A DNA stretch of 64,000 nucleotides from contig CAYMEV010000010.1 in NCBI GenBank assembly GCA_964389675.1, positions 1 through 64,000 on the forward strand. The letters are read 5' to 3'. The DNA comes from an uncultured Candidatus Sumerlaeota bacterium (GTDB lineage: Bacteria > CAYMEV01). Both the position numbers and the translations under genes were made by a program. This document shows, in pieces, positions 7,526-35,706 of this stretch. Under the pieces are notes generated by a model. That model searched no databases and was not told the origin of the DNA. It saw nothing but the letters and a program-made list of their open reading frames with translations. The first letter of the stretch is position 1, and every line of letters begins with the position of its first letter.

Positions 7526-10500
7526 TCACATAATCCAGTTAAGGGATGTCCTGAATTGTTCTGTTTCGCCGTAGGTGGAAACAGATTCCAGGATATAGAT
7601 ATATTTGCCTCCAGGCTTTACAGAATCAGTGAAGTTATAGACATGCGGCTCAGAAGATGTCCCATATCCCTCTATCAGTGAGCTGTTGAGCTTTACAGGT
7701 GTAAGGGCGACAAACGGGCTTATTTTTCTGAGTGATAACCTGTACAGATTCCAGCCGAGGTTATCAGTTTCCGTCATTGTCATCCATTCTATTAAAGCCC
7801 TGTTTCCCATTCCGTTTGCATTAAAATAAGTAAGCTCAACCGGAAGGGGTACTTCGATATAAGCCTGATTATTACCAGAATTTCCATCCGTCGGCAGTAC
7901 ATTTGATATGATGACGGTCAGTATATATGCCCTTGCTTCAAGGCCGGTGGTATCCCAGTCTGCTTCAATATCAGCATATTCAAGAGAAGGAATGCTTCCG
8001 AAGCTTTCTGATGTTATCAGCTGAAGGTCTGTGTTCGGGGCGGTGCTGTAGTAGAAGGCTGCATCGCCTGATGCTACTTCTTCCAGCCCAAGGTTTCTTA
8101 TCCTTGCAGAAATATTCACTGTATCGCCGGGTTCGGGGTTTGCATTGCTGAAAGTAATGTCCTGTGAAGAAATTGAAGCATCAGGGGAGGTATCGAACAT
8201 TACATAATCAACCCATCCTGCGTCTTCTCCCTCGTTCATTGAGCCATCTTTGCTGTATTCCCATGTCACAGTGTTTGGCCCGGATCCCAGATAACAGGAC
8301 ATCTCCTGCCAGTCTTCTTCTCCGCTTATCCTGTCCTGCATATTGCCGTTAATATATAATGTCAGATAGTCATATCCTGATTCCGAGCTTACCTTCCAAT
8401 AGAATGAGAGCTGACCGGGGCCATTTACCTCCGTTTCGAGAGACGTGCTCTGGCTTCCCATTATAAGGCCGCTTTGCGCTGATGATTCACCATAATACCA
8501 TATATCTGACTGTGCAAGCCATTCTGCATCGCCATATGTAGACCATTCAAGGTCAGGGTTATCCAGGGCTTCCTTCAGTGTTATTGTAAAGACCATCACT
8601 GTATTTGAATAATCCGAGTTTCCGTTTGCATTATATGCATATACCCTGTAAAAGTATTCATTGCCCGGAAGGACGGTTGTATCCTGGTATTCAGCCGTAT
8701 CAGCGGCAGAAGTACCGGCATTTTCCCATGTCCCTGCCTCGCCGAGCCTCCTCTGGATGACAAAGCCCTCCTCATTAGTAGAATTATCATTCCATGAAAG
8801 GTCAACCTGTGTTGATGAAACCACTAAAGCAGTCAGGTTTGATGGCGGTATAGGCGTCAGGCTTTCTTCCAGCGTCATCTGTATATTCAGAAAATGATTT
8901 GTGCTGTATACAGTCGGCTCAGCTGTTCCTGTCCAGTCCAGCGGGTCTCCGTATGAAGAGTCAGCATAGCCGTAGATGGTCCTTGGATCAGCACAAGCAG
9001 TCCAGTAGCACCTTCCTATGTCTGTCTGCGGTGTATATGAGGAGTTCATGAAGCTTATATCTATCATAAGATTATTAATTCCATCATAGACAAAGGGGCC
9101 CCCCTGAAAATAGAATGTGGTCCACCCTAAGTCTGATATTGTCTCATCGTTCTGGTATACTATTGTCCAGTCAGCTGTTTCAAAGCCTTCATCGGAAGAA
9201 AAGTCTGTCTTATCCGTATGCTTCATCCTGATAGTAAAATTATGAAGAACAGCAAGGGGTATCTTTGAAACATCCATTGAAAGCGAGTATAGAGGTATCG
9301 GGTCCTTTGTGTCCTTGCCGGAGCCAAGCTCGCTCTGAAGATAGATGACAGATGTCCTGTTCTTCCAGTAGTATGTATACAGAGGTGTCCTGTCAAGTTC
9401 CTCAATGCCATTGCCAATGCTTATTACATTGGCTGTATCAAAGCTGTCACATGCTGATGTTCCGGCATTTGATGCATGGTCAATTGCTTCAACTGCATAA
9501 AATACAGTTGTCTGCGGCGTTAATCCCGAAATTGTACCCTGATGCTCTGTCTGGAGAGTATCGCTTATGATCATCTCATTTACCAGTGAGCTGCAGTCAG
9601 GGCCCCAGTATACCTTTGAAGTTGAAGCTTCATCTGTCTGAAAGGAAATATCAGCTGAATTACCGAATATGTTAGTAATATTTATATTGCTGATCACAGG
9701 GGCGATGCAGTCAATGTCTGCTGTATCAGTCTTTACTGCAGGTGTCCCGTCACCGATATCCTCATCCTGGTATGTTGCAGTAAGTGTCTGCCCATCACCG
9801 ACGACAAGCTCTGTGCCAAGTGCTATTGTCTGCTGATAGATGCCTGGTTCGATCTCAGGAAGCACAGGGTCCATATTGGCGGGCCCCGGTGTAGCTGTAA
9901 GATGAACTGTAACGAATGAGGCCCCTGCATTTGAATCCATGACGGTAATTACTACGTCAGAACTGCAGGAATAAAAATCGCTGTCAAACTCCACTGTACC
10001 GTTTGGTTCCGGTTCATTACTGATAAGTCCCAGCTGCAGGTTTATGAAATTATTTGTTGATGATGGAGCAGGATCAGAGGATCCTGTCCAGTCAAGCGGA
10101 TCACCTGCTCCAGAATCAGAATATGCATAAATCGCCCTGCTGTCTGATGTGGCTGTCCAGTTTACTGCTCCGGACGGGGTTTGCCAGGATGCATTGTTAA
10201 AGCTGAAATCTACCATAAGATTCTGTATACCGTCATATTCAAACGGTGTATCGAGGCTGAATGTGACCCAGCCAGTCGAGCTTATTGTCTCATCACTCTG
10301 GTATACAACAGTCCAGTTATCTGTCTCAAATGAAGCTCCTGCACTGTAATTGGATTTGTCAGTATGCTTAAGCCTTATTGTCCAGTTTGAGAGAGTCATT
10401 GCAGGGGCAGCAGTAACGTCAATGCCCACAGAGCTTATTAAAAGGGGCTGGTTCCCGAGATCTGAAGCCAGATAGATGACCTGTGTCCTGTTATCATGAT

Positions 10501-13159
10501 AATAGCAGTAGAGCGGTGCCTGGGTAACAGAGACATTGCCGTCCCCTATCGTTATTATATTGAGTGTCTTGAATGTAAAAACAGCGCTTGTATTCTGATT
10601 ATTGACCGTGTCTTCTGCAACTATCTCGAAATAATAGTCTGTATCCGGAAGGAGCCCTGAGATCTCCCCGCTGTGATTAATTTTATATGATGTAGAGATA
10701 TCCTGTGAAAGATCAAGACTGCCCGGGTCAGTTCCATAATTTACATATGCTGTGGCATCCTCATTTGTGGTAAATTCAATGCAGGCGCTTTCACCGCTTA
10801 TCTCAATGATATTGACATCGGATATATCAGGCCCCATGCAATCAATATCTGCCGTTGCATACTTTGTTTCACCGAAACCGCTCCCATTGTCAGCATCATT
10901 GTATGTAACAGTGACAGTATCGCCATTACCTGCGGTCAGGTCTGTCCCAAGAAGAATTGAACCCTGGAAAACGCCCTCAAAGGCTGTTTCTGTGAGAACT
11001 GCATCAATACCTGCGGGATCTGTCGTTGAGTATACAGGTAGTGTATATGTACCTGAACCTGCAAGGTCTGCATCCATTAAGCTTATATTTACCTCTGAAG
11101 TGCAGTTATAGAGGTCCTTATCAAAGGTCACAATACCGTCTGAAGATGTTCCTACCATCACTGTTGCTGTATAATTAATATAATTCGGGTGGGTAACTGT
11201 CAGCATAAATTCCCCCGGGATAGTAAGGGGATCATCGAAGTTTACCAGGGCAGACCCGGAAGCATTTGTCTTTGCTGCACCCCTGACATTCAGGGAAGGC
11301 ATCCAGGCACTGACAATGGCATTTTCCACAGGGGCTTTGGAATCATAGACACTGACATTCATGGAATTTGAACCTGATGCAACAAATGAAGGGGCATCCA
11401 CTACCAGCTCGGCAGGTGATGATTTGGGTATGAACGTTGTCCCATCCCCGAATACCACATAATATTCCATATACCTTGCAGACTGCCCCCCTCCGCTGTA
11501 ATGGTTCCACAGCTGGATCTTGGCATAATCCGAGTTTGGGGCAATAAGCTGGATCCCCTCAGAAAAGAAACCGTCATAAGACCTCCTTGCAAGGATATCA
11601 TCCTCATCCCAGTAGGATGAATTGGAAGCCCCCCAGTATCCGATTGCCGCATTATCTGCCCTGATGAATGCCTCGGCAATGCATTCCCCGGTATTATCGA
11701 ATGTTGCACTTGAACAGCAGTTCCCGATGGCGTAAAAATACATGTCCTGATTTGTAAGGGCATGAACATCCGTATTTGTGATATCCTGCCCGCTTCTGAA
11801 AGCCCATACAGTAGCTCCGCAGTGAGCAGAATAGTTGGAGATCATTCTGCCGGCATTCATTGATGCTATTACTTCAGCCTTTGTAGCATCGTATGTATGC
11901 CTGTAAAGCTTGTCATAGAGCCATCCAAGAGGATCAAGATACATATCGACAGCATAGTTGAAGGTGCCTTCGGCAATATGGCCTGAACCGTAGTCCTCAC
12001 CTGCAATTAGGGCAGCATCATCCATCCATGAAAGGTCAGAATTTTCAAACTTCTCATAATAGAGAAGCTTTCCTAGATAGGTTGCAAGCTCTGCTGTGCT
12101 TACAATGGATATCCTGCTTATTGATGCATCAGGGAAGCTATCTGACCCTGCCAGGAAAACATAAAGCTGGTCAGAGGCTGAAGAGCAGTTCGGGCCTGTA
12201 AATGTCGGGATCTGATCAGCATCCCCTACCAGGATAATATATGCAGGAGGAACAGGCCAGTTGTCATATGCATCCTGTATATATGCCTTAATACCTGCAG
12301 TGGTATTTCCGTTGGCGATCTCCGATGTCCTGACGGTATTTACCCTGTATCCCTTGATCTCCTTCCATTCAACAAATTCAGCCAGGCCGTCATAATATGC
12401 ATCCCCGGTTATTATAAGGATGCCCTCATCACTGAAGCCTTTGTATTTGCAGAGTGATTTCAGGTGATCCAGTCCCAGGGAAGATTTTTCATATATCACA
12501 GAATAGCTGTTGAGGTATCTTCTGTACATATTATGTGTAGCATACAGGTCCGGGTCTGATATCCTTATCTCCACCTGAATATCCTTATAGACCATTAGCC
12601 TGCCATCCACCGGGTTGTATTTTACAGGGAATATGCTTACAGGCAGTAACCTTATGCCTCTTGCCCGTATTTCTTCATGTACAAGGACGAATTCCCTGGG
12701 ATAATAAAGATTTTCAGAGTAGATCTTTTCATTCATCTGGAAAGGGATATCCCCTTCGCCTGATTTTGGTACGGGAAGCTGAAGAGGATAGATAAGATCA
12801 GCACCGGTCTCAGCCAGAATATCAAGAACCTGCTCGGAACCGTAGGAGAACATTACCTCATAATCCGCATTTTCCGGTATTGCAATAAGCTTGTAGTAGG
12901 CGGGAAGGTTCGGGTTTCCATAATCTCCATAAATACTGCCGTCCTCAAAACAAAAATCCGCATAAAGTATTCCCTCATGCTCGACTAAATTATAGGATGC
13001 ATCTGATATGAACGTTCCTAATTGAATCCTGTTCAGATCATATGACTGTAGAGCAACTTTATTTTCACTGTCTCCTGTATTGAAATAGATAATTCCATCT
13101 GAAGAAAAAACAGAGAGTGAAAAAAAGAGCAGGAAAAAATAAACAGTTAACCTTTTCAA
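7526..13159 (-). CDS. Secreted multidomain C25 (gingipain-family) cysteine peptidase with propeptide, duplicated Ig/FN3 modules and CARDB-LPVEL tail
   Basis: Likely TTG start at 13159 after AAGGGGG, giving signal peptide MKRLTVYFFLLFFSLSVFS. Propeptide (GNPNLP..LIAIP, PVKYNPV). C25 motifs FVEWKEIKGY, YIILVGD, NYSAHCG, AIGNCC. FN3 motifs WNDNSTNEEGF and YFYRVYAYN. Confidence 0.9.
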   Translation of the reverse strand: MKRLTVYFFLLFFSLSVFSSDGIIYFNTGDSENKVALQSYDLNRIQLGTFISDASYNLVEHEGILYADFCFEDGSIYGDYGNPNLPAYYKLIAIPENADYEVMFSYGSEQVLDILAETGADLIYPLQLPVPKSGEGDIPFQMNEKIYSENLYYPREFVLVHEEIRARGIRLLPVSIFPVKYNPVDGRLMVYKDIQVEIRISDPDLYATHNMYRRYLNSYSVIYEKSSLGLDHLKSLCKYKGFSDEGILIITGDAYYDGLAEFVEWKEIKGYRVNTVRTSEIANGNTTAGIKAYIQDAYDNWPVPPAYIILVGDADQIPTFTGPNCSSASDQLYVFLAGSDSFPDASISRISIVSTAELATYLGKLLYYEKFENSDLSWMDDAALIAGEDYGSGHIAEGTFNYAVDMYLDPLGWLYDKLYRHTYDATKAEVIASMNAGRMISNYSAHCGATVWAFRSGQDITNTDVHALTNQDMYFYAIGNCCSSATFDNTGECIAEAFIRADNAAIGYWGASNSSYWDEDDILARRSYDGFFSEGIQLIAPNSDYAKIQLWNHYSGGGQSARYMEYYVVFGDGTTFIPKSSPAELVVDAPSFVASGSNSMNVSVYDSKAPVENAIVSAWMPSLNVRGAAKTNASGSALVNFDDPLTIPGEFMLTVTHPNYINYTATVMVGTSSDGIVTFDKDLYNCTSEVNISLMDADLAGSGTYTLPVYSTTDPAGIDAVLTETAFEGVFQGSILLGTDLTAGNGDTVTVTYNDADNGSGFGETKYATADIDCMGPDISDVNIIEISGESACIEFTTNEDATAYVNYGTDPGSLDLSQDISTSYKINHSGEISGLLPDTDYYFEIVAEDTVNNQNTSAVFTFKTLNIITIGDGNVSVTQAPLYCYYHDNRTQVIYLASDLGNQPLLISSVGIDVTAAPAMTLSNWTIRLKHTDKSNYSAGASFETDNWTVVYQSDETISSTGWVTFSLDTPFEYDGIQNLMVDFSFNNASWQTPSGAVNWTATSDSRAIYAYSDSGAGDPLDWTGSSDPAPSSTNNFINLQLGLISNEPEPNGTVEFDSDFYSCSSDVVITVMDSNAGASFVTVHLTATPGPANMDPVLPEIEPGIYQQTIALGTELVVGDGQTLTATYQDEDIGDGTPAVKTDTADIDCIAPVISNINITNIFGNSADISFQTDEASTSKVYWGPDCSSLVNEMIISDTLQTEHQGTISGLTPQTTVFYAVEAIDHASNAGTSACDSFDTANVISIGNGIEELDRTPLYTYYWKNRTSVIYLQSELGSGKDTKDPIPLYSLSMDVSKIPLAVLHNFTIRMKHTDKTDFSSDEGFETADWTIVYQNDETISDLGWTTFYFQGGPFVYDGINNLMIDISFMNSSYTPQTDIGRCYWTACADPRTIYGYADSSYGDPLDWTGTAEPTVYSTNHFLNIQMTLEESLTPIPPSNLTALVVSSTQVDLSWNDNSTNEEGFVIQRRLGEAGTWENAGTSAADTAEYQDTTVLPGNEYFYRVYAYNANGNSDYSNTVMVFTITLKEALDNPDLEWSTYGDAEWLAQSDIWYYGESSAQSGLIMGSQSTSLETEVNGPGQLSFYWKVSSESGYDYLTLYINGNMQDRISGEEDWQEMSCYLGSGPNTVTWEYSKDGSMNEGEDAGWVDYVMFDTSPDASISSQDITFSNANPEPGDTVNISARIRNLGLEEVASGDAAFYYSTAPNTDLQLITSESFGSIPSLEYADIEADWDTTGLEARAYILTVIISNVLPTDGNSGNNQAYIEVPLPVELTYFNANGMGNRALIEWMTMTETDNLGWNLYRLSLRKISPFVALTPVKLNSSLIEGYGTSSEPHVYNFTDSVKPGGKYIYILESVSTYGETEQFRTSLNWIM
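8870..11140 (-). repeat. Intragenic tandem duplication of a ~380-aa three-domain module in the C25 protein
   Basis: Paired segments VTFDKDLYNC/VEFDSDFYSC, TADIDCMGPDIS/TADIDCIAPVIS, PLYCYYHDNRTQVIYL/PLYTYYWKNRTSVIYL, IRLKHTDK/IRMKHTDK, GDPLDWTG in both copies. Boundaries approximate. Confidence 0.85.
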
Positions 13160-13293
13160 GACTATACCCCCTTTTTTATTGTTTATATAATATGATACAT
13201 TAATTTGATTTTTTGGCAAAGATTTTGGCAGAATATATCTGCAAATGAAGGGGTATATCTTTCGGATAATTATCTGAAGGTGCGGGGAAGATG

Positions 13294-13324
13294 CCAGGGA
13301 CACCCGTAAAACAGATGTCCTTGG
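13294..13324 (-). other. Intergenic hairpin between the Kelch gene and the C25 gene (terminator or RNA-stability element)
   Basis: Minus strand CCAAGGACATCTGT-ttt-ACGGGTGTCCCTGG pairs at 13 of 14 positions with G-U allowed; no clear U-tract. Confidence 0.5.
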
Positions 13325-13344
13325 TATTATTATATTATTTTAAT

Positions 13345-15786
13345 CTATCTTCCTTCCAGGGGATTGGAAGTAGTTAATTCCTCATTTGAAAGAAGCTCAG
13401 GCTTGACAGGCTGTATCGGGTTGGCTGTCATCCAGCGGAGCTTGGTCCTCCACTGTTCTGTCGTACCTTCTGTAGATATAGATTCGAGGATATAGAAATA
13501 GGCTCCATGGCTTTTAATGGTATCAATGAAACTGTAATAGAAAGGTTCAGGGCTTGTCCCCTGGCCCGGTATAATTGTATCATTGAGGAGGACCGGGGTA
13601 TATGAAACAAACGGGTTTACCTTTCTTGCTTTCAGCCTGTAGATGTTCCAGCCGAAATTATCAACCTCCGACAGTGTCTGCCATCTTATGAACGCCTTAT
13701 TGCCTGCACCAATAGCAGTGAAATAGCCAAGCTCAACAGGCAGGGCATATTCCCTTGTAGCCTGGTTGTTTGTATAGTCAACATCAAAAGGCAGTATATC
13801 TGTAAGGATCACTGTTATCCTGTAGGCAGTAAAATCAAGGCCGGTTGTATCCCAGTTGGTCACTACCGGTTCGGATGCCTTTCCCGGAAGGATCGGCCCG
13901 AATGGTACAGTGTTTATAAGGGTCAGATCAGAGGGATCATCAGTAAGAGAATAGTAGAAGTTTGCATTTCCGCTGTCGCAGGTCTCATCACCAATATTAT
14001 TGACTATTGCTGTGATCTCTACCAGGTCTCCCGGGTTTCCAACAGGCGGGTCGCATGAAATACCGCTTGAAAATACAGCCGGGTCCGGACCGCTCTGGAA
14101 TGAGCAGTTCTGTATCTTCTGTACATAATCATAGCCGTAGAAGGATTGAGTCCTGTCAAAACCGCCGACTGTATATACCGAATTTAGGATTGTGGCAGCA
14201 TTGAACCTGAATGTAGCTTCCGGAAGGACTATAGGCAGAGTATTCCAGACATTGAGGGCCGGATCATAGGAGAAGATGCTGTCTGTTGCAGAAGTATCAT
14301 CATTTCCTCCGGCAACTATGAATACCTGTCCGTTGAAAGCGCCTGCTGCTCCCCATCTGCCTGCAGGCATAGGTGCAACAGATGACCATGATCCTGCTGC
14401 AAGGTCATAAGCCCAGCAGTCTGTTGAAAGGCTGTATGAAGCCCCGAGGCCGTGGAATCCGCCAACAACATAGATCTTCCCGTCCGAAACAAATGAGGTA
14501 TGCCACCATGACCCGTCAGGCATGTTAGGAAGAGCGATCCATGTATCTGATGATATATCATATTCATAGAATCTGTCAGTGACATTGGCGCCGTCATATC
14601 CTCCGGTGAGATATATCCTGTCGCCGTATGATACGAGTTTTCCGCCGAAGCTGCCGGAAAATGGGGTAGTAATATCAGACCATGAATCTGATGTTATATT
14701 ATATATCTTCCAGGTTGTGCTTGCTGCGTTCTGTAAAAGGATCTGGTCTCCAACTACTGCGGCAGACCCGGGATATTCTGCAACAGGTTCAGGCATGGGT
14801 GTACCGTATGTCCATGTATCAGTTGCAGGGTCATAGATCTCAACTGAGGCAACATTGGTAACAGGTGAATGATAACCGCCCAGGGCATATATCTTATTGT
14901 CAAATGCGACAACTCCTGCATCAAGCCTGTTATCATTGAGAGGTGCTACAAGAGAGGCACAGAAAGTAGTATATGTGGTCGCATAGATATAAGCTGTTGA
15001 TGTGTAGGTCTCTGTCACCCCGTTTATCTGATTCACTGCCTGGACCTCTATGTCGGATGTATAGCTGTCAGGTGCCGATGCGGGCGTTGTAACCAGAGCG
15101 GTGAAGGAGACTTCATCCCCTGATGGCACATCAAGTATAGGATTAGGCGTGAATGATACAGTGTAGCCTGCTTCAGCAAGATAGCTGAGGTCAATATCAA
15201 GTTCATGAGGAGTATTGTTCCATACAGAAAGCTGCTTTGCGAAACTTTCTCCTGCACATACCTCACCATATGATTCATAGGGATTTATATAAATATTTTC
15301 CTGAAGCTCATAAAACTGGACGGTAAGGAATAATTCATGAGGTTCGGATCCATACAGGTCCCCGTAAATGTCAACATCAGCATCTATGATCCCTGAGGTT
15401 GTGCCGGGGACAGTTACATTAACGGCATAATAGTGGTCTGACTGGCTGTACTGGCATCCATACGTCTCTGTATTATACCATCTGGCAACATTCGTGCCTG
15501 CACCCTCCATAAGCCATAGGTGAGAACCGTTGTTATTCGGCCCGTCATAATGGGTGACGCTGTTTATTACCCAGTCTGCCGGGAAAGTGATTATTATCTC
15601 ATCAAGCCATTCAGCATCTGTTGAATTGTTCCAGATAAGGAATGCTATATCCTGTGCTGAACCCGGAGAATAATAATCAGGTTCAGGTACAGCCGTGCTT
15701 CCTTCAATAGAAGCAAGGCACGGTATTGATGAAAAAAGGGCAATGAAAATTATTATAGGAAGAATTTTTAGGAAATTAAGCATCAA
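13345..15786 (-). CDS. Secreted Kelch-repeat beta-propeller protein with CARDB-LPVEL tail
   Basis: SD AGGAGG; signal peptide; Kelch GG motifs IYALGGY, IYLTGGY, IYVVGGF, FIVAGGN, VYTVGGF with YDP..W ends; tail shared with two other proteins. Confidence 0.88.
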   Translation of the reverse strand: MMLNFLKILPIIIFIALFSSIPCLASIEGSTAVPEPDYYSPGSAQDIAFLIWNNSTDAEWLDEIIITFPADWVINSVTHYDGPNNNGSHLWLMEGAGTNVARWYNTETYGCQYSQSDHYYAVNVTVPGTTSGIIDADVDIYGDLYGSEPHELFLTVQFYELQENIYINPYESYGEVCAGESFAKQLSVWNNTPHELDIDLSYLAEAGYTVSFTPNPILDVPSGDEVSFTALVTTPASAPDSYTSDIEVQAVNQINGVTETYTSTAYIYATTYTTFCASLVAPLNDNRLDAGVVAFDNKIYALGGYHSPVTNVASVEIYDPATDTWTYGTPMPEPVAEYPGSAAVVGDQILLQNAASTTWKIYNITSDSWSDITTPFSGSFGGKLVSYGDRIYLTGGYDGANVTDRFYEYDISSDTWIALPNMPDGSWWHTSFVSDGKIYVVGGFHGLGASYSLSTDCWAYDLAAGSWSSVAPMPAGRWGAAGAFNGQVFIVAGGNDDTSATDSIFSYDPALNVWNTLPIVLPEATFRFNAATILNSVYTVGGFDRTQSFYGYDYVQKIQNCSFQSGPDPAVFSSGISCDPPVGNPGDLVEITAIVNNIGDETCDSGNANFYYSLTDDPSDLTLINTVPFGPILPGKASEPVVTNWDTTGLDFTAYRITVILTDILPFDVDYTNNQATREYALPVELGYFTAIGAGNKAFIRWQTLSEVDNFGWNIYRLKARKVNPFVSYTPVLLNDTIIPGQGTSPEPFYYSFIDTIKSHGAYFYILESISTEGTTEQWRTKLRWMTANPIQPVKPELLSNEELTTSNPLEGR

Positions 15787-15865
15787 TCTGCCTCCTGTAT
15801 TTAAAAATAGAAATAGATTTCTTAAAAAAATTTGTGATCATCAATAAAAAAGCCATGTGATAGAT

Positions 15866-15893
15866 ATACTAAAAGAAATTTCTCCTTTGTCAA
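15866..15893 (-). promoter_or_regulatory. Putative sigma-70 promoter of the Kelch gene
   Basis: Minus strand TTGACA-16 nt-TAGTAT. Confidence 0.45.
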
Positions 15894-16064
15894 AGAAAAA
15901 TGAATATAAATTATAATTTTTTTCACATATTTTAAATATGATATTTTTGTTAAATGATTCAATATATAGTGGTATAATATCAAAATAAATAGAGATAAAG
16001 GAAAAAAGATGGATAAACATATGAACCTGAAAGAAAAAAATCAAAACAGAGATCAGGGTGCAGT

Positions 16065-16583: not shown

Positions 16584-16622
16584 TACCTGTACTGCCTCCT
16601 GTACCGATGGAGATCCTATCTT

Positions 16623-17993: not shown

Positions 17994-18035
17994 ATCTTAC
18001 TCCTTTTGATTTTTAGTCTTCAGCTAATAGAAAAA

Positions 18036-20315: not shown

Positions 20316-23279
20316 TTAGAAAAGGTAATTCTTCTCAAGGGTCTTGAATTTCTGAAGCAGTTCACCAAGCCTTTCCTTCTGACTTGAATCAGCAGAAGTC
20401 CTCAGGATAGATTCTGCAAGGCTGATACCCTCCCTTACCTTCTCTTTTGCAAGCGATCTGTCTTTCAGCTCAATATGGATCAGGGATTCCTGATAGATTG
20501 CATAGCAAAGGTAATAGCTGTTACCGCCGGCCGTAAAATTTTCCCTGGCGGTACTGATCTCTTTAAGGGATTTGCTGAAATCCTTCCTGTTGTAGAAAAG
20601 CATTGAAGATTCATATGCTACCATCCCCAGCAGGAAATGGTTTTTGGACTGGGTAAAAAACCTGTTTGCGTTCTTGAAGTTGTCAATGGCATCGTTTTCC
20701 TTGTTCAGCCTTATAAGGGATAAAGCAATATAATAATGGATCTTGCCCTTTGTATCATTATCTTTGATCTGTGAGATCTGTATGCCGTTCAGCAGGTTAT
20801 AGCTTTTTTGAGGATCAGTTCTGTATGTTATTTCAGCGAGGTCCACAGCAAGAGAAGCATACTGCTCCCATTCCCTGGATTTTGCGTAAAAACCCATTGC
20901 ATCATCAAGATAATCTGTTTTTTTTCTGGTCTCATGCCTTGGTACAAGTTTAGATAAATTTATTAAAATTTTGCCGTAAAGTTCAGAATCCGGTTCATTC
21001 TCCTGGAAGTACCTGAGGGATTCCTCGAAAGCCCTTATGGAAGAATGGTTTTCCTGAACGGCATTATAGCATAAACCCAGATGATAGTATGCGACGGCTG
21101 CATTTCTCTTCACCTGCTCATTGGCGGTAATATTTTCTGAAACTGACACTGCCCTTTTAAGGGCATCAATTGCCTGATCATATGATTTTTTATTATAATA
21201 GAGTATTCCTGCTTCGAATTTTGACCTGAAGAGGCCTGAATTGTCTCCAATATCGGCATAAGTATCAGCAATATCATCCAGGACCTGGACACTGGCTGCT
21301 TTATCTGTCTCACCTAAGAAAGAAAACACATCATATGCCTTATCAGTCGCCTGTTTCTTAAAGCTGATGCTTTTCATTTTTTCCTGTGCATTTATATATG
21401 TATTGACCTGTGAACGGAAATCATTTGAAATCGAGTATAATGAAGCAATTTCAACTGCAAGGTTCAGCAGTGTAATGTCGCTGCAATCAATTTCCATTGC
21501 ATCCTTGAGTATTTCATGAGACCTTATTATATCACCGGTATTCCTGTAGGATGACCCTACCATAAGGCGAAGCTGAGCGTTCTCTTCCGGGTCGGGTGAT
21601 TTTGAAAGCATTGAGCTGTCCTTTTCGTATATATCAATTACAGCCCTGTAATTTTTGCCTGCAAAAAGTGCTGCAAGCTCATCATACCCGGGAGAAGCAT
21701 GTTCAGGCAAATCTTTTTCCGGTTCTTTTTCACTTTCTAAAAGGGTATCAATCTTTTTTAACAATTGAAGGGCTTCTTTATTGCCTGGCTCCAAAAGCAG
21801 TATGCTGTTTATTTCCTGTCTTGCTTCGTCAAAATTTTTGCTGTTTATCAGCTTATCTGCATTATTCAGCCTGGCCTGGATAATAATCTCTTCCTGCTCT
21901 TTCCGGGCGCCTGTTTCATCCGGCAGATTCTCCCCTGTAGCTGTATCCACAGTATCTTCAGGGGAAGAAGTATCAGTATCAGCATCGGAGTCCGGTATGA
22001 TTGTCGTTTCATCCGTGGAATCTGTTTCACCTGTGACGGGGATCGTATCAGTTTCCGTTTTTTCTCCTGCTGTAACCTCAGTTTTAGCAGTATCTGTTTC
22101 TCTGGACCTGTATTTTGAAAATATATAAAACCCGGTTATTATTATCAGCAGAGACATAACTGCGAAAATGAACATAACAAGCCTGGAGTAATGCCCCGGT
22201 TTAAATGGTGTTGTGGTGGTTACTTCAATTGTCCTGGGTTCTTGTATATCTTCCTTCCTGGGAGATACGGGCCTGACGGTATCCTGATCATGTGTTTTTA
22301 TCTCAGGGGTTTTATCCTCAGCCAGGCTGGATTCAGATAAGGGCATGGGAGATGCCGATGACAGGTATGAGGAAATGTCCCTGTGCATTTCAATTGAGGA
22401 TTGATACCTCTTTAAGCGGTCTTTCTCCAGTGATTTTCTTATTATCCTTGCTACTGCTTCAGGGATTTCATGATTTATGGACTGCGGGTCCGGGAAGGCT
22501 TTCGTTACAATGGAGTCAAGTATCTGGATTACTCCCTTTCCTTCAAAAGGGTTCTTCAGTGTAAGCATCTTGTACAGGATCGAGCCTAAGCTGAATATGT
22601 CGCTCCTGCCGTCAAGCGTCTTGCCAAGTATCTGCTCCGGCGACATGTAATAGGGTGTTCCTACGAGCATTCCTGTTTTTGTGATATTTGTCTCCTCCGA
22701 ATCAAGGATCTTTGCAATCCCGAAATCTGCTATCTTAGTTACTTTGTTGTGAGTTATTATAATGTTAGAGGGTTTAATATCCCGGTGGATAATATTATTC
22801 TGGTGAGCATAATCCAGTGCAAGGCAAATGTCCGATATGATCTTAAGTGTCTGCGGAATGGGGAATACAATCTTATTCTTTATATAGTATTCTATATCAT
22901 AACCGACAATCAATTCCATTATAATATAATAGAAATCTTCCTCCAGGCCGAAATCATAAACAATAACAATATTTGGATGATCTCCAAGTTTTGCCTGGGC
23001 TTTGGCTTCCCTTAAAATCCTTTTTCTTGTTCTTTCTCTCTGGTCTGTGCTGATTATGTCTTTTAAGGAAATGCTTTTTAGTGCGACATATCTGTCAAGG
23101 TGGATATCAAAGGCTTTAAATACAAAGCCCATATTGCCCTTGCCAAGAAGCTCCAGTATTTTATACCTTTTTGCGATCAGGGATCCTTTTGAAAGTTTTC
23201 CCAGGATTGTCTGACATTTAGAACAGTAGCTTAAATTAGGAGGATTTGAAAAACCGCATTTTGAGCATATCTGTTCCAT
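20316..23279 (-). CDS. Membrane Hanks-type Ser/Thr kinase with N-terminal zinc ribbon and C-terminal TPR region
   Basis: CSKC..NP..CSKC; LGKGNMGFV, VALK, HRDIKPSN, DFG, GTPYYMSPEQ; TM LVMFIFAVMSLLIIITGFYIF; T/E/D-rich linker; TPR-like helices. Confidence 0.93.
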   Translation of the reverse strand: MEQICSKCGFSNPPNLSYCSKCQTILGKLSKGSLIAKRYKILELLGKGNMGFVFKAFDIHLDRYVALKSISLKDIISTDQRERTRKRILREAKAQAKLGDHPNIVIVYDFGLEEDFYYIIMELIVGYDIEYYIKNKIVFPIPQTLKIISDICLALDYAHQNNIIHRDIKPSNIIITHNKVTKIADFGIAKILDSEETNITKTGMLVGTPYYMSPEQILGKTLDGRSDIFSLGSILYKMLTLKNPFEGKGVIQILDSIVTKAFPDPQSINHEIPEAVARIIRKSLEKDRLKRYQSSIEMHRDISSYLSSASPMPLSESSLAEDKTPEIKTHDQDTVRPVSPRKEDIQEPRTIEVTTTTPFKPGHYSRLVMFIFAVMSLLIIITGFYIFSKYRSRETDTAKTEVTAGEKTETDTIPVTGETDSTDETTIIPDSDADTDTSSPEDTVDTATGENLPDETGARKEQEEIIIQARLNNADKLINSKNFDEARQEINSILLLEPGNKEALQLLKKIDTLLESEKEPEKDLPEHASPGYDELAALFAGKNYRAVIDIYEKDSSMLSKSPDPEENAQLRLMVGSSYRNTGDIIRSHEILKDAMEIDCSDITLLNLAVEIASLYSISNDFRSQVNTYINAQEKMKSISFKKQATDKAYDVFSFLGETDKAASVQVLDDIADTYADIGDNSGLFRSKFEAGILYYNKKSYDQAIDALKRAVSVSENITANEQVKRNAAVAYYHLGLCYNAVQENHSSIRAFEESLRYFQENEPDSELYGKILINLSKLVPRHETRKKTDYLDDAMGFYAKSREWEQYASLAVDLAEITYRTDPQKSYNLLNGIQISQIKDNDTKGKIHYYIALSLIRLNKENDAIDNFKNANRFFTQSKNHFLLGMVAYESSMLFYNRKDFSKSLKEISTARENFTAGGNSYYLCYAIYQESLIHIELKDRSLAKEKVREGISLAESILRTSADSSQKERLGELLQKFKTLEKNYLF

Positions 23280-26567: not shown

Positions 26568-26569
26568 TC

Positions 26570-26881: not shown

Positions 26882-27496
26882 CCCCAGTTCGATTATATCA
26901 GGGAAGCCATTTCCTTTATTATTGATAAGCGTCATTATGGTGCGGTGAAACATTGCATATCCTCCCTGTTTTTTCTGCATATCAGGCATTCTTATGCATT
27001 TTGTAATTATCTTTTCTTTTCCCAGTATCTCATTGAAGGTATTTGAAAGCTTCTCCAGCCCTGCTTTGGAAATTGCATGCATTGTAATCTTTCTGTAAAG
27101 CTTATGCGGGCGGGATATGGTGAAATTGATAATAATGGCCGGTTTTGTCAGTCTGGATTCGTTCTTTATAAGACTTTTAACCATCAGAAAGTAACTGTAT
27201 ATGTTCGTGTCCATTTCCAGGTGGAATTCTTTCCTGTTAAAATCATGAAGGCTCTTATCTGACAGATAGCCTGCCAGATTTACAACTGCATCTATTTTGC
27301 CAAATTTGCTGAAGCTTCGCCTGATCAGCCTTTCATAGCTGTCTTTTTTCAAGAGGTCGAATGAACTTACCAGAAGGTTGTCCTTCTCCGAGCCGTTATA
27401 GCCTCTGTAGTTTATACTCAGGGAATGCTCTTCAAGCAGGGAAGGGAGCAGTCTCCTGCCCAATTTGGAATTTGCTCCGGTTAAAATAATATTCAC
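26867..27496 (-). CDS. SDR family oxidoreductase-like protein (degenerate motifs)
   Basis: IILTGANSKLG, FGKIDAVVNLAG, HAISKAGL at the YxxxK position. Confidence 0.75.
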   Translation of the reverse strand: MNIILTGANSKLGRRLLPSLLEEHSLSINYRGYNGSEKDNLLVSSFDLLKKDSYERLIRRSFSKFGKIDAVVNLAGYLSDKSLHDFNRKEFHLEMDTNIYSYFLMVKSLIKNESRLTKPAIIINFTISRPHKLYRKITMHAISKAGLEKLSNTFNEILGKEKIITKCIRMPDMQKKQGGYAMFHRTIMTLINNKGNGFPDIIELGSFSS

Positions 27497-30400: not shown

Positions 30401-31320
30401 AAAAGAATGGCATAGAATATAAGCTTATCATAGCTTATATACATGCCGGCATGATTTATATACAGCAGTACAATGGAGGCACTGACGGCCATATATACCA
30501 GTTTCATCCTTAATGCAGAGGACTCTGCTGACCTCCTGAATGGCCTGAATGCCATTATTAAAAGTGAAATATATAAAAAGAACCTGAGATAAAAAATTCC
30601 TTCTGAATAAAGCAGGATAAAATGCCCAAGAAAATATAAAAAAGGAAAAGCTGGTTCCGTATGCCTGATCTTTTTTATTAAAAAAACAGAGATCAGAAGC
30701 AGTAATATGAAAAGACTGGTATTATTCCTGAGAAAGGAAAGGCTGATGCTGGTCCTATCAGCCTTAACAATGCTGAACAAAGGCATTTCATTATAAGAAA
30801 ATACAGCGGAGTCCTGCTCTGCTTTAATATTTGGCGATATTGCGTAATATGGGGGCAGCTTGACTGAGATCCTGTCCGGATAGTTCTCTGAATATATAAG
30901 GAAAAACAGATAAGTGCCTGGCATGAGCTTCCTGTAGAAATAAGCGGTATTTTCACTGTGAATTGTCCCGAAATCATAGGAGACATTTGCAATATCATTG
31001 TAAGGGATATATGCTTTTCCGGCAATCATACCGGGATGCCGGTCCCTGAAACTGACCAGGAAAAGGTAATGCTTGTCCAGGTATTCCTTCAGGCCGGCGG
31101 GTAATCTGTCACTGCCTATTCCCCGGGATATTGCAGACATTACATATTCTGAATGCTCAGTTATCGCGTTTTCAACAATATTATAAACAGCATCCTTCTC
31201 TATCGGCTTTTGCCCGCCGGAACAGCCAAAAAGCAGGGATAATGTCAGAATGATTACTGCTGAAAGGATAAAGCCTGTTACTATAGTATTTCTCATAGAA
31301 AACTTATTGTATAATAGCAT
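27493..31320 (-). CDS. Large multi-pass membrane sensor histidine kinase (NtrY-like core)
   Basis: H-box FAHDIKNPL, N-box NLIRNSVES, G boxes IKDNGPGI and GFGIGL; many TM segments; start may be the ATG at 31296. Confidence 0.88.
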   Translation of the reverse strand: MLLYNKFSMRNTIVTGFILSAVIILTLSLLFGCSGGQKPIEKDAVYNIVENAITEHSEYVMSAISRGIGSDRLPAGLKEYLDKHYLFLVSFRDRHPGMIAGKAYIPYNDIANVSYDFGTIHSENTAYFYRKLMPGTYLFFLIYSENYPDRISVKLPPYYAISPNIKAEQDSAVFSYNEMPLFSIVKADRTSISLSFLRNNTSLFILLLLISVFLIKKIRHTEPAFPFLYFLGHFILLYSEGIFYLRFFLYISLLIMAFRPFRRSAESSALRMKLVYMAVSASIVLLYINHAGMYISYDKLIFYAILFNINLFFIMLLRALKANTAKIAVIVLLLNMSLSLVLIMLYESELNTDIMLKLKTISYDEHSISKIIAMDLFNSLNKEILYERLLSGKTSKLGFETYRDSLASFLKRDITVILFDSMGKITERFSLREPLNYLNVESYIQDIFLNGKIDHMEEHETKPDIYIRGELLIKDTLIGGGILILCSLDYFCNDLQSVNMNITEALFSHQSPKPEWIRPLLDRSYYYLVIKNTNIIHSSRNISFEVPQDFYEISAKNGPISQAGNIIINKKSCRAYYFKQKGRPLLVFLIEDYDIYYFIFAFINNISLSLAAFFPLLIMIAVPRIRERVDIHSLRTRIGFSTALLSLIPVLMVFYILQSALSNYFSNYHASQVQKISFDIKESISLEINKRSELILKSRILEDFISGRIQVEGLERYLLGHFQDTPINGISIKNNQMPVYERQENISIHKESRILEGILDYKSTQKGLYITIYKKVKDIEAIFIFELTRSFLEEISGKFSADLGFADKSGFISLSTFDFLMYSGIIPYNQGAGLLDRDIHPIKIKGQDYYISSKELHPRDTSLIVIKQLMPVYLLQIITRFTTIIFSFVLLIVVIILTKTDSLIAGNINSFIKKLNMIREEKLKSVNTDEINLTEFKRVANMMNELLNTIYKSNLITDTLIKSIPVAILLLDSENNTIHSNKIFDDWAKLLEDQINSFLDDSSINTAVFPVFSSGRNKHKQVFKLDKYPIEMKDNKTANLIMITDISSLLELEEAKLRTKMAEKFAHDIKNPLMPIKLYVQHLSRLYERDRDKFTSDFAATADTILSQVEIIESILLRYARIKKEESRLDKIHRLGDIFQSLKNSFIFHDGKIEVSFVVNDPDSKVLIDYIEFFNAISNLIRNSVESLKGKGRIIITESITGKDLSICIKDNGPGIPESILKIIKTSGNASSKAQGFGIGLQLAKDFAEMMNGNMAIQSDKNGTEIIIILPGIVQ

Positions 31321-31443
31321 ATTTCTGACAAATCTGATAGCAATATCATTACTATTTGTACAAAATAAAATTCTGTACCGGGGAAAAAAGCACCTATAAA
31401 ACGGCAGAAAACCATAATGGGCAAAAGTGCCTTTTAATGAGGT

Positions 31444-33237
31444 TTATTGTATATATCCCAGGCTTTTCAGCTTTGGGTTCAATTCGATATCTGTGTCTTG
31501 ATGCAAAACTGCATTTTCTGCTTTTATATAAGCATCGGCCGCCTTGTCAAGCAGTGTATCAAAAGGATCCATGTTTTCAGCGGGCATATATAGATTGGCC
31601 TTTTCCATCGGGTCGCTCAGGAGGTCATAAATCTCAATATTTCTGCTGTCAGTGATAATCTTGAGATCCTTATCGATAATTCCAATCTTCATGCTGGTTA
31701 TATTTCGCTTTCCAAAAAGGTGAAAGACATGCTCCCTGTCATCTGGCAGATCTTCTGAAGATATCAGGCTTTTTCCATGAAAGACGGTATTGCCCGGGGT
31801 AATATTGCAGAAGTTCAGAATTGTGGGCATAATGTCCAGATGTGATGTGGTCTTGTCGACAAATTCCAGCCCGCTGTGTCCGGTACTATCATTGATAATT
31901 ATCATTGGTACCTTAATTGTTGTATTGTAGGGGGATTCAACGTGGTCGAAATAGATGCTGTGTTCATCAAGGGATTCTCCATGGTCAGCTGTGATGATTA
32001 TAATTGCATTGCTTAGGAGATCGTCTGCTTCAAGCTCAGACAGCAGGTCAACAAGATGTGAATGCAGATATTCTGTTTCCTTATAATAAAGCTCCTTAAC
32101 ATATTCTATTCCAGCTCCCCGGGGGACCCATCCTTTTAAATAATCACCCTTCTGCGGATCCTGGAACAGCTTAAGCATTGCCTCCCTATCATCGGGATTG
32201 CTGTAATAGGGCTTTTTCTTGAAATTCTCAGGCTCATAAGGGGCATGCGGGTCAAAGAAATGCACAAAAAGGAAAAAACTGCCTCTTTTCAGAAGGGGCA
32301 GATTTGACTTGATAGCTCTATTGGTGTCCTGAGCTTTCCTTTTAGCAAAATGCCTGCAGAATGAAAACAGCCTGAGCGGATGAAAACCGTAGTCCGAAAG
32401 GGAATAAAGCTCATTGTATAAAAGGAATCCCTGGTCGAGATTCGAGATACTGCTGTTCATGGTAAGCCCGCTTATATAGCCGAAGGTATTATATCCGGAA
32501 TCCTTAAGGACTTCAGCAAGGGTGTCAAATTCAGCTGAAAGAGGGTATGCATTTGTATAAACCCCGTGCTCTGTAAGGTAAAGTGATGTAAACATGGTCG
32601 AATGACTCGGATTGGTCTGGGGGGAACAGGTATAATGGTTTAAGAATACAGTGGAATTGTGTTTTTGAATATACCTTGTCAGCCCGCAATCTGAATTATT
32701 CTTATATATTCCAAGCACATCATGCCGGTAGGTATCCATTGAGATCAGAACAATATTCGGCCTGTCATCAGTAATCTTTTCATTGAGCAGGGAATATGAT
32801 CTGAATGGATGCATTAATAAGGGTAAAATGAAAATAAGGCATATAATATGGACAGCATACCTGCTGTCCGATGCCTCATGAATCAAAAATGAAATAATTA
32901 TCGAGGCGAATAATGACAGGATTACGGCCAGCAGGCCATATATGCTGTAGATTGAATGTTTAGGATTCTTTAATACATGCAGCCTGTAGATGAAATCAAA
33001 AAAGAGGATAAGGAATGAAAAGGCAAAGAAAATAAAGGCAAGGATTGTTCTTTTTCCAGGGAGATACTTGACTATAAAAAAGGATAATAGTGAGATAAGG
33101 ATAAAAAAAAATGTATATAAATATCCCTTTAATACATGACTCCATAGGATAATATAGCTTTTGCCAAATATATTATTTATTAAATTAAACAGGAGAAAGA
33201 AAAGCAGGATTTTGTAGAAGTGTGTTTTTTCAAACAT
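31444..33237 (-). CDS. Membrane-anchored sulfatase-family (alkaline phosphatase superfamily) protein
   Basis: N-terminal TMs; PNIVLISMDTYR, TNPSHSTMFT, HFFDPHAPY, TADHGE, DIMPT; C-terminal LKSLGYI. Confidence 0.87.
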   Translation of the reverse strand: MFEKTHFYKILLFFLLFNLINNIFGKSYIILWSHVLKGYLYTFFFILISLLSFFIVKYLPGKRTILAFIFFAFSFLILFFDFIYRLHVLKNPKHSIYSIYGLLAVILSLFASIIISFLIHEASDSRYAVHIICLIFILPLLMHPFRSYSLLNEKITDDRPNIVLISMDTYRHDVLGIYKNNSDCGLTRYIQKHNSTVFLNHYTCSPQTNPSHSTMFTSLYLTEHGVYTNAYPLSAEFDTLAEVLKDSGYNTFGYISGLTMNSSISNLDQGFLLYNELYSLSDYGFHPLRLFSFCRHFAKRKAQDTNRAIKSNLPLLKRGSFFLFVHFFDPHAPYEPENFKKKPYYSNPDDREAMLKLFQDPQKGDYLKGWVPRGAGIEYVKELYYKETEYLHSHLVDLLSELEADDLLSNAIIIITADHGESLDEHSIYFDHVESPYNTTIKVPMIIINDSTGHSGLEFVDKTTSHLDIMPTILNFCNITPGNTVFHGKSLISSEDLPDDREHVFHLFGKRNITSMKIGIIDKDLKIITDSRNIEIYDLLSDPMEKANLYMPAENMDPFDTLLDKAADAYIKAENAVLHQDTDIELNPKLKSLGYIQ

Positions 33238-33444
33238 ATATCATATATAAATAATGGAAGCTGAAAGTAAAGAAAAAATAAACCTAATTAATAATAATGA
33301 GTATTATTATTATAAATGGAAAAAAATTATTGCATTGATTTTAAAAATTAATATAATGAAAATGCTGATGATATATTTTGGTCAATCATATTTATTAAAG
33401 ATTCATATGCAAAATAAACTAATTAACTAAAGGAGGTAGTTTCA

Positions 33445-35706
33445 GTGAAATTATTTAAATCACTATGCCTGGTGCTTATTATGGCTTTTCTTGCTATCAG
33501 CATAACCGGCACTGAGTATGCATCACCCTTCTCAAAGCTTGACAGGGCCGTAAGCGAAGGGAAGGTTGATATTTATGATGCAGCGATTATAAAGGCAGCT
33601 GCGATTTTCCAGGGGACAGATGTCCCGGATGAGTATTTTGTAGATAATGCATCTGTCAAATGCCTTACTCCCTATATCCTTGAGATAGAGGGATTATTGG
33701 AAGATGCCCCTCAGACATATAAGGACCAGTATAAGGGCTTAAAAGCCAGGCCATCTTTTTCAGGCCCTGAAGAGGTTTTCATATCACCTGACGGTTATTT
33801 CTACATACATTTTACGAGGGATGGTGTTGACGCGCCTAACCTTACAGATTCAGATTCATCAGGAACCCCTGATTATGTTGAGGTTATGGCTGATGCCTTT
33901 GATCTGAGCTACAATGAATACCACAATATCATAGGTTATCTGACCCCTCCGGGAGATGATACTGAGGGCGGAGGAACCGATATATACGATATCTATATAA
34001 AGAACCTGCAGGGAACAGGAGCCCTGGGGTATACCAGCCCTGAGGGGGCATCCAACGACAATCCTACATACCCCACCAGGAGGATATCCTATATCGTAAT
34101 GCATAAAAACCTGAATGTAGCACAGAGGACATCCACATCAGCGCATGAATACACACATGCTGTACAGTTTGCTTACTATTATGATTCATACTATGATACA
34201 ACAAGAGCATGGATGGAAAATCATGCAATGTATGATGAAGAGGTTGTATTTCCTGATGATAATGACTGGGATGGGTATGTCGGCTCAAGACAGAACAGGC
34301 CATATCTTGCCCTGTGGACATTTGAAAGCCCCTCATTTCCGGATTCAGGCCTTTTCCCTTACGGCAATGTAATATGGGCATTCTTTTTAAGGGAATACAT
34401 TGCAGGCTATGACGAGCAGTTCATGCTGGACCTGACCGACAGAATGGGACAGTATACAGCCCCCGGAGACGGCGGTTACTACAGGCAGGCACTGGATGAG
34501 ACAATACTGGATTATTCTTCAGGTGCATACTATACTGCAACAGCCTATAATATCTTTACCAACTGGAATTATCTTGTAGCATCACTTTATGACGGAACAA
34601 CCTATGATGAGGGGGATGATTTCTCAAGGACTCCCAGAGTACACCATCAGATTGAGGCTACGACCGATATACCCTTCTACGGGGATGCATCTCCTGTAAA
34701 TGTAAATGATTACTATACCCAGTCCATGGGAAGCCATTATAATATCATAAACAATACAGACCTGTGCGGATATACAGGAATCAGCATCCATTTTCTCGGT
34801 TCAGCCACTTTAAATTCAGCCTGGGGCTACTCTGTAGCAGCTCATGATAAGAATGCTGACTGGAATGCAGGCTGGACCTGGCTTGAGATCGAAAATCTGA
34901 CCGTAGAGCCGTTTGAGGCATATATTAATGTTTACAACCTTCAGGACTACGACAGGGTTGTATTAATAGTTGATAATGCAAGGAATGTCGAAGGTGTTGC
35001 AGGAAGAAACTATGAGGTATGGATCGATTTCCTTCAGGACGGGCCTGATGCATCAATTTCAGCATCAGATATCACGATCACACCGGAGATACCACAGCCA
35101 GGCGATATCGTTAATATTGATGCCAGAATATATAATATAGGTAATGCTGATATTACAAACGGTACTGTTAATTTTTATTACAGCCTCGAACCCGGAGTTG
35201 ACCTCCAGCTTATAAGTTCAACCCCTGACTTTGGTGCACTTGCACAGGGTGCATATCTGGACTTTAATGCTGTCTGGGATACAGCCGGTATTGATCCGGA
35301 CCTTTATATAATAACAGTTGAAATAGCAGATGTTGAACCATCGGATGTCAACCTTAACAATAATATAATGACTGCAGAGATGCAGCTCCCTGTAGAGCTT
35401 TCGTATTTCAATGCAATCGGTTTCGGCAACAGGGTAAACCTGCGCTGGCAGACAGTTTCAGAGGTAGATAATCTTGGTTTTAACCTCTACAGGCTAAATG
35501 CGAAAAAAGTAAATCCGTTTGTGTCCTTTACCCCGGTCAAGATCAATGATCAGCTCATTCAGGGACAGGGTACATCATCAACACCGCAAAACTATTCATT
35601 TATAGATCATGTTAAGCCCGGTGCAGAATATTTCTATATACTTGAGTCTGTTTCAACAGAAGGCGAAACACAGGAATGGAAGACAAGGCTTAACTGGACC
35701 ATGTAA
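33445..35706 (+). CDS. Secreted HEXXH zinc metalloprotease (MXAN_6640-like) with CARDB-LPVEL tail
   Basis: SD AAGGAGG with GTG start; signal peptide; FYIHFT..G.DAP, GTPDYV, TSAHEYTHAVQFAY, downstream WMENHA; shared tail. Confidence 0.85.
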   Translation: MKLFKSLCLVLIMAFLAISITGTEYASPFSKLDRAVSEGKVDIYDAAIIKAAAIFQGTDVPDEYFVDNASVKCLTPYILEIEGLLEDAPQTYKDQYKGLKARPSFSGPEEVFISPDGYFYIHFTRDGVDAPNLTDSDSSGTPDYVEVMADAFDLSYNEYHNIIGYLTPPGDDTEGGGTDIYDIYIKNLQGTGALGYTSPEGASNDNPTYPTRRISYIVMHKNLNVAQRTSTSAHEYTHAVQFAYYYDSYYDTTRAWMENHAMYDEEVVFPDDNDWDGYVGSRQNRPYLALWTFESPSFPDSGLFPYGNVIWAFFLREYIAGYDEQFMLDLTDRMGQYTAPGDGGYYRQALDETILDYSSGAYYTATAYNIFTNWNYLVASLYDGTTYDEGDDFSRTPRVHHQIEATTDIPFYGDASPVNVNDYYTQSMGSHYNIINNTDLCGYTGISIHFLGSATLNSAWGYSVAAHDKNADWNAGWTWLEIENLTVEPFEAYINVYNLQDYDRVVLIVDNARNVEGVAGRNYEVWIDFLQDGPDASISASDITITPEIPQPGDIVNIDARIYNIGNADITNGTVNFYYSLEPGVDLQLISSTPDFGALAQGAYLDFNAVWDTAGIDPDLYIITVEIADVEPSDVNLNNNIMTAEMQLPVELSYFNAIGFGNRVNLRWQTVSEVDNLGFNLYRLNAKKVNPFVSFTPVKINDQLIQGQGTSSTPQNYSFIDHVKPGAEYFYILESVSTEGETQEWKTRLNWTM

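Follow-up and report, generated by a model that had tools for sequence, protein, structure and literature searches.

Three otherwise unrelated secreted proteins encoded in a 64,000-nt stretch of DNA from an uncultured Candidatus Sumerlaeota bacterium (contig CAYMEV010000010.1, positions 1 to 64,000; hereafter the window) close with the same tail of about 220 aa, made up of a CARDB-like immunoglobulin (Ig) domain and a terminal domain of about 107 aa, here termed the LPVEL domain. In this lineage, the LPVEL domain forms a branch of its own within a very large FN3-like family that is not catalogued. Relatives in other genomes normally stand just before the C-terminal domain (CTD) that marks cargo of type IX secretion (the T9SS); in this organism, a diderm in which SprA, PorV and type-A CTDs were not found, the LPVEL domain is the last domain of the protein. 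We tentatively favor a reading of the tail as a localization or retention module of Sec-exported enzymes, and not as an export signal of the T9SS type, while regarding that reading as still somewhat short of probable.

A shared tail on three unrelated secreted proteins

The tail carriers are a C25 peptidase, a Kelch protein and an HExxH protein, with the following features in the window:

7526..13303, minus strand: C25 (gingipain-family) peptidase gene, longest open reading frame (ORF) 1925 aa, with matches to Peptidase_C25 (E 1e-56), Propeptide_C25 and fn3
7853..8185, minus strand: CARDB-like Ig domain, first half of the C25 tail, from tail alignment and hidden Markov model (HMM); Pfam CARDB weak (E 0.03)
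7529..7855, minus strand: LPVEL FN3-like terminal domain of the C25 protein, followed by 2 residues before the stop, from domain HMM and fold
13345..15786, minus strand: Kelch beta-propeller protein gene, 813 aa, signal-peptide-like N-terminus, from Pfam
13750..14088, minus strand: CARDB-like domain of the Kelch protein, from tail alignment and HMM
13432..13749, minus strand: LPVEL FN3-like domain of the Kelch protein, from tail alignment and HMM
13348..13431, minus strand: 28-residue extension beyond the LPVEL domain of the Kelch protein, the sole long one among 22 copies
33445..35706, plus strand: MXAN_6640-type HExxH putative metalloprotease gene, 753 aa, signal-peptide-like N-terminus; NF045524 at E 4e-38, under the curated cut-off
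35044..35379, plus strand: CARDB-like domain of the HExxH protein; Pfam CARDB E 0.005
35377..35703, plus strand: LPVEL FN3-like terminal domain of the HExxH protein, followed by 2 residues before the stop

An earlier note on this stretch, written by a model from the letters alone, had drawn attention to the tail, and its description of the three proteins proved accurate. Their last ~220 residues show 50-55% pairwise identity, with a mean column identity of 68%, while their N-terminal parts belong to unrelated families. The consensus given for the tail was correct, as were its ends: the C25 and HExxH proteins stop 2 residues past the final Trp, and the Kelch protein continues for 28 more. The Sec-type signal peptides assigned to all three were also recognized, by eye and in a hydropathy window, as a basic followed by a hydrophobic stretch. 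For the C25 ORF, the true start likely lies near 13160, where the protein would begin with the signal-peptide-like MKRLTVYFF....

The first half of the tail resembles the Pfam family CARDB (PF07705), with the three window proteins either below the cut-off or without a match. Against a gathering score of 22.7, the C25 protein reached 14.9 bits and the HExxH protein 17.4 bits, and the Kelch protein was not matched. Among the 20 other tail ORFs of the genome, 5 exceeded the gathering score (23.6-30.1 bits) and several fell under it.

Fold and family of the terminal domain

AlphaFold2 was run on the LPVEL copy of the HExxH protein, which forms the first row of a 22-row alignment of the domain (A2). 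The resulting model is a beta-sandwich with a mean predicted local distance difference test (pLDDT) score of 91.7. Structural comparison with VIA-align returned FN3 domains as the best matches (Z 9-10, with 9.4-10.0 in the top rows; root mean square deviation [rmsd] 2.1-2.9 over 89-100 residues), among them 2ibg_A (Z 10.0, rmsd 2.7, 99 residues), and Foldseek likewise placed FN3 and Ig domains at the top. Judged by this model, the LPVEL domain adopts a seven-strand FN3 fold. Sequence models, in contrast, do not match: the Pfam fn3 model (PF00041) had no match on the window LPVEL domains, the A2 profile found only chance-level similarity among PDB sequences (E>=0.23), and no model in Pfam or NCBIfam covers the domain. 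A full-text literature search for 'LPVEL', together with T9SS-centered searching, found nothing on the LPVEL domain family.

To gauge the size of this family, a profile was searched exhaustively against 1.84 billion representative proteins; 23,004 of them matched at E<=1e-3, of which 2,018 reached E<=1e-10 and 44 reached E<=1e-30. Of the 44 best matches, 33 contain a single LPVEL domain, and in 31 of these the domain ends within 8 residues of the protein end; the remaining 11 carry 3-10 tandem copies each. When 18 proteins with multiple or internal LPVEL domains were compared with Pfam, Por_Secre_tail or FlgD_ig proved to be the closing domain of 9 with a score above the cut-off and of 1 more with a weak score.

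Strictly terminal copies with an apparent single origin

The genome to which the window belongs (G000) is a 3.57-Mb assembly of 58 contigs, 93.8% complete. The only other genome of the phylum in the genome search is that of a sister species in the same genus (G001), 91% complete. An HMM built from the three window tails, a search that the earlier note had proposed, scored these tails at E 1e-122 to 1e-125 and recovered 20 further ORFs in the same genome. The 23 ORFs comprise 14 with a full tail, 8 with only its second half and 1 that a contig end cuts after the first half. An iterated search with the second half, the LPVEL domain, converged at 22 ORFs (the 3 in the window and 19 others), and the sister species yielded at least 15 tail matches at E<=1e-26. 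The CARDB half was never seen without LPVEL: the two occur together in all 14 complete copies, and the only other CARDB half belongs to the ORF that a contig end truncates. Shorter tails consisting of a 'PVEL' strand only were sought in the genome, and none was found.

Across these copies (22 and 15 in the two species), the LPVEL domain always comes last and is never internal or in tandem. In 20 of the 22 ORFs it ends 0-3 residues from the stop codon, in the other two the distance is 6 and 28 residues, and all 5 readable complete ORFs of the sister species end 2 residues beyond it. A heuristic detected a signal-peptide-like N-terminus in 21 of the 23 tail ORFs, the exceptions being one fragment at a contig end and one ORF that is probably a gene fragment. 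Outside the window, the tail closes three C25 peptidases, an M28 peptidase, two Kelch proteins and many SBBP beta-propellers, as well as one beta-helix, one GLUG and one MAM protein. The many unrelated cargo types in two species rule out a recent duplication restricted to three genes, one of the circumstances in which the earlier note would have abandoned its claim.

Several contigs start or end within tail cassettes (C52:2439-4301, C38:12331-13758, C20:3-77, C53:3238-3318 and C32:1789-1920), and three short fragments of the LPVEL domain are also present in the assembly. The assembly probably breaks at the repeated cassette, and the true copy number may exceed 22.

Mutual identity among the 22 LPVEL copies ranges from 32 to 77% (median 46%). 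In a quick maximum-likelihood tree of 126 domains, they join 5 copies of the sister species in one long-branch clade (SH-like approximate likelihood-ratio test [SH-aLRT] 99), within which orthologous pairs of the two species are found; other phyla form clusters of their own. Orthologues of the two species share 77-79% identity in the LPVEL domain and 70-74% over the remainder of the protein. Collectively, the single clade and the orthologue identities indicate that the cassette arose once in this lineage, spread to unrelated cargo and has been maintained by purifying selection.

These observations bear on an explanation in which the tail carries no targeting information. The FN3-like and CARDB domains would be a passive legacy or spacer, that is, a structural, folding-helper or substrate/adhesion module corresponding to the Ig-like domain that stands before the CTD in T9SS cargo, and would be terminal only because the lineage has no CTD, whether this was lost with the T9SS or never acquired. 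We consider this a serious possibility, albeit one that we doubt. It is favored by a fold that is plain FN3 and by the wider family, in which internal positions predominate and tandem arrays are common. It sits poorly with a cassette that went on spreading to unrelated cargo as a single clade, that is always last and has the same end residue in nearly all copies, and that is conserved at least as well as the catalytic parts. Moreover, a module at the extreme end of a protein, with nothing beyond it, has nothing to space.

Pre-CTD homologues and the absence of T9SS markers

A pattern scan of species-representative genomes delivered 79 loci with 83 ORFs containing an LPVEL domain. The loci carry the labels Cloacimonadota, KSB1, Poribacteria, Neomarinimicrobiota, Calditrichota, Latescibacterota, Cytophagia, Ignavibacteriales, Chitinophagales, Kiritimatiellia, Chloroflexota, Myxococcota and others. 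With type-A CTDs detected by an HMM of 23 such domains, the ORFs were distributed as follows:

61 of 83 ORFs: LPVEL domain, then a type-A T9SS CTD 11-29 residues downstream (median 23)
13 of 83 ORFs: LPVEL domain terminal, with at most 45 residues after it (5 from the sister species, 6 from Chloroflexota, 2 others)
6 of 83 ORFs: LPVEL domain, then something else
3 of 83 ORFs: truncated where the locus or contig ends

LPVEL domains thus normally serve as the pre-CTD domains of T9SS cargo, which bears out the earlier note's statement that PVEL-type Ig domains of FCB-group bacteria are usually followed by a T9SS CTD. Because the two stand side by side in one protein in other phyla, LPVEL and CTD are different domains. 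A pre-CTD domain, such as the Ig-like domain of RgpB, is the last domain of the mature protein, just upstream of the CTD. LPVEL domains take this place in Cloacimonadota, Calditrichota, KSB1, Neomarinimicrobiota, Poribacteria, Latescibacterota, Cytophagia and Ignavibacteriales. The LPVEL domain of the window lineage differs in that nothing comes after it, and its likeness to the Ig-like domains of P. gingivalis is one of position.

What is reported of the pre-CTD domain of P. gingivalis also counts in favor of the spacer explanation. Sato et al. reportedly dealt in 2018 with Ig-like domains and cargo stability. Passages of PMC11285876 describe the CTD as a 3+4 Ig-like sandwich, state that breaking its contact with the preceding domain blocks RgpB secretion, and present the pre-CTD domain of P. 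gingivalis as important for secretion and stability. The 61 ORFs with a pre-CTD LPVEL domain favor the same explanation.

The position of the LPVEL domain was then set beside the occurrence of SprA. SprA is present in the three genomes G002-G004, where a CTD comes after LPVEL, and a poribacterial genome with the same arrangement (G009) encodes a divergent SprA-like ORF of 1946 aa. No SprA was found in the genomes where LPVEL is terminal or differently followed, namely the two of the window phylum, G005 and G006 from another SprA-less lineage, G007 (Chloroflexota) and G008 (Kiritimatiellia). Where SprA is lacking, LPVEL usually closes the protein. G005 and G006 hold 13 and 16 LPVEL matches, respectively, and in the genes sampled the LPVEL domain is the last domain in 11 of 12 and 3 of 4, followed only by a tail of 27-43 residues.

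Some further features of these genomes may be recorded. One ORF of G005/G006 (1069-3648; loci L049 and L058) has CARDB and LPVEL domains and then a conserved C-terminal domain of ~125 aa, distinct from the type-A CTD. The remaining LPVEL genes of G005/G006 mostly end in the strand 'WTAHGP' plus a tail of 27-43 aa, and several of these tails share the motif RISDLRSPTAN. In G009 (C907:20334-24206, via L034), type-A CTD cargo has an NPFNP motif, and the SprA-like ORF scores under the family cut-off; the poribacterial data suggest a T9SS outside the Fibrobacterota-Chlorobiota-Bacteroidota (FCB) group.

For the window proteins themselves, neither Por_Secre_tail PF18962 (Pfam, E<=0.1) nor any T9SS CTD model of NCBIfam (E<=1) gave a match, and hhalign assigned a probability of 1.9% to the comparison of the LPVEL A2 profile with a profile of 23 type-A CTDs. 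The HMM built from these 23 CTDs had no match in the genome even at E<=10. SprA (TIGR04189), PorV (NF033710) and PF18962 had 0 matches in both genomes of the phylum. All three were found in each of the positive controls G002-G004, which are the complete chromosome of a Cloacimonadales member, a chromosome from Calditrichales and a Cytophagia metagenome-assembled genome, with at least 150 PF18962 matches per control. The FlgD Ig-like model PF13860, which matched in 6 of 14 control genomes, was absent from the three window proteins and had 0 matches in their genome.

Four other models were not informative. TIGR04183 had 0 matches in the window genome, and the control genomes were also without signal in that search. 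The type-B CTD model TIGR04131 found nothing in the two genomes of the phylum and only sub-threshold matches in the controls; GldM (TIGR03517) was positive in just 1 of 3 controls; and GldK (TIGR03525) matched only generic sulfatase-modifying-type domains everywhere. These last three were not used as markers.

On this evidence, we rejected the tail both as a FlgD-Ig domain and as a T9SS CTD or T9SS variant. The earlier note had been right that the tail contains no T9SS CTD, and it had asked for the FlgD-Ig comparison; its suggestion of a T9SS variant is not supported, with SprA, PorV and type-A CTDs missing from both genomes of the phylum and present in three controls. The type-A CTD, too, is a small C-terminal beta-sandwich found on many unrelated Sec-exported hydrolases and adhesins, including C25 peptidases, but it has no sequence relation to the tail, and the fold of the LPVEL domain is FN3. 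That the tail might be a highly diverged CTD serving a cryptic T9SS is suggested by cargo like that of Porphyromonas, namely gingipain-like C25 peptidases and a peptidyl-arginine deiminase encoded in the genome. Against the missing markers in two genomes that are 91-94% complete, the hhalign result, and proteins elsewhere that hold both LPVEL and a true CTD, we find this idea scarcely credible.

Envelope, possible exit route and gene neighborhoods

The organism is a diderm: TolC/AcrAB and LolA are encoded in the window, and its resistance-nodulation-division (RND) efflux genes show that it has an outer membrane. The efflux genes form an ordinary set (1332-7447: a TetR regulator, then TolC-like, HlyD-like and AcrB-type RND genes). 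The LolA gene (35778-36431) lies directly downstream of the HExxH gene and is followed by a gene for a LonB/LonC-like AAA protease (36512-38935).

Elsewhere, the genome contains a PilMNOQ type IV pilus cluster and a separate cluster resembling a type II secretion system (T2SS), with E, F, a PilN-like protein, a pseudopilin and a secretin. This secretin (L109:8668-11058; C5:53667-56057) begins with a TPR region and ends in a cohesin-like domain (PF00963, E 9e-8), which shows 90% identity to its counterpart in the sister species; to our knowledge, no cohesin-bearing secretin has been described. A predicted complex of the LPVEL domain with the cohesin-like domain received a score of 0.02 and a mark of 0.32 with no control runs, and counts neither way. 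When the cohesin-like domain was sought in G005, G006, G007 and G002, it appeared weakly in G007 only, giving no link to the lineages with terminal LPVEL.

Recurrent neighbors of tail genes encode other secreted multidomain proteins, Ser/Thr kinases, ABC ATPases/transporters and RND pumps. One such kinase, of 987 aa with TPR repeats, is encoded in the window (20316-23279, minus strand), and its paralogues (6 members) recur near 7 tail genes.

Gene neighborhoods are relevant to the idea that the terminal LPVEL domain is a new export or sorting signal, read in the periplasm by some undescribed machine for outer-membrane export or attachment, possibly the T2SS-like secretin. In its favor, the domain is strictly C-terminal, occurs on unrelated proteins with signal peptides, is conserved between species and is absent from catalogues; its cargo types (C25, M28, propellers) are those exported by the T9SS elsewhere; and the SprA-less genomes G005 and G006 also place LPVEL last. 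Yet no recurrent neighbor resembles machinery, homologues in other genomes share a polypeptide with a genuine export signal, and other secreted paralogues do without the LPVEL domain. We judge such a signal unlikely.

Interchangeable end-modules

The LPVEL tail is one of at least three interchangeable end-modules in this genome. A second, of ~350 aa with weak FG-GAP matches, closes at least 10 large signal-peptide proteins, many of whose genes adjoin LPVEL-tail genes (loci L111-L113 and L117). Its carriers include a C25 peptidase whose N-terminal part is the same as that of a paralogue ending in the LPVEL tail, and also the Porphyromonas-type peptidyl-arginine deiminase (PPAD-like). A third end-module, consisting of DUF5648 repeats, closes another C25 peptidase and propeller proteins. 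Positions on the contigs are:

FG-GAP-like module: C13:3624-7937, C14:71506-74937, C19:23015-26473, C1:93168-96563, C1:96662-100909
FG-GAP-like module, continued: C1:100932-105209, C24:49352-50281, C30:4263-7634, C30:16525-18732, C8:27058-29487
DUF5648 repeats: C30:21626-25066 (L114), C38:5036-7342 (L115), C1:87625-89520

Because C25 paralogues bear FG-GAP-like or DUF5648 ends, the LPVEL tail is no general requirement for export, and the presence of such paralogues in the same genome also speaks for the spacer explanation. Functionally, the arrangement may be likened to dockerin, SLH and similar modules, in that interchangeable modules end paralogous enzymes; unlike these, the tail has no known receptor, and it is related to them neither in sequence nor in fold.

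Discussion

A localization role for the tail is plausible. Under the localization or retention reading, which we prefer with reservations, domain shuffling would have copied the two-domain cassette onto the C-termini of at least 22 Sec-exported proteins. These proteins would reach the periplasm via Sec and might cross the outer membrane by way of the T2SS-like system described above. The cassette at their ends would then act as a cell-proximal module for localization or retention, docking non-covalently to an envelope component or a common partner.

Several results weigh against this reading. The weaker matches of the LPVEL family are mostly proteins with 2-15 internal copies, and such internal domains and arrays in giant proteins fit a generic spacer equally well. 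The T2SS-like route is suggested by the presence of its genes, and docking is conjectured with no partner, anchor or processing site identified. Neighbor analysis found no machinery-like gene recurring beside tail genes, and paralogous enzymes carry exchangeable ends. Finally, the absence of SprA from G005-G008 is weaker evidence than that from the two genomes of the window phylum, as it comes with no completeness figure.

The earlier note had gone further and proposed a new sorting or anchoring module. What stands of that proposal is a strictly terminal, uncatalogued tail on unrelated cargo. The proposal loses force because the closing domain is nothing unusual within a huge FN3-like family that elsewhere is mostly internal, either directly before a CTD or in tandem arrays of up to 15 copies. 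Paralogous enzymes of this genome also bear at least two other shared end-modules, and no cognate machinery was found. A broader reading can also be entertained, in which a terminal LPVEL-type FN3 domain is the envelope-localization tag of diderms lacking a T9SS (the two-species phylum studied here, the G005/G006 lineage and Chloroflexota), acting through an undescribed receptor or export step; the architecture of T9SS cargo would then have come about by appending the cleavable CTD to this older end-module. We hold this to be rather improbable.

Gingipain-like C25 peptidases, PPAD-like deiminases and M28 peptidases are textbook T9SS cargo. Here, these cargo types are found in a diderm lineage without a T9SS, on proteins that can end in the very domain that elsewhere precedes the T9SS tag. 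If a terminal FN3-like domain does carry localization information, it would represent a widespread and uncatalogued way to place enzymes on bacterial surfaces, and a localization role, if true, would also explain the pre-CTD domain common to T9SS cargo of many phyla. A family of ~23,000 representative proteins merits a family model, as LPVEL tails will otherwise be read as "unknown" or mistaken for CTDs.

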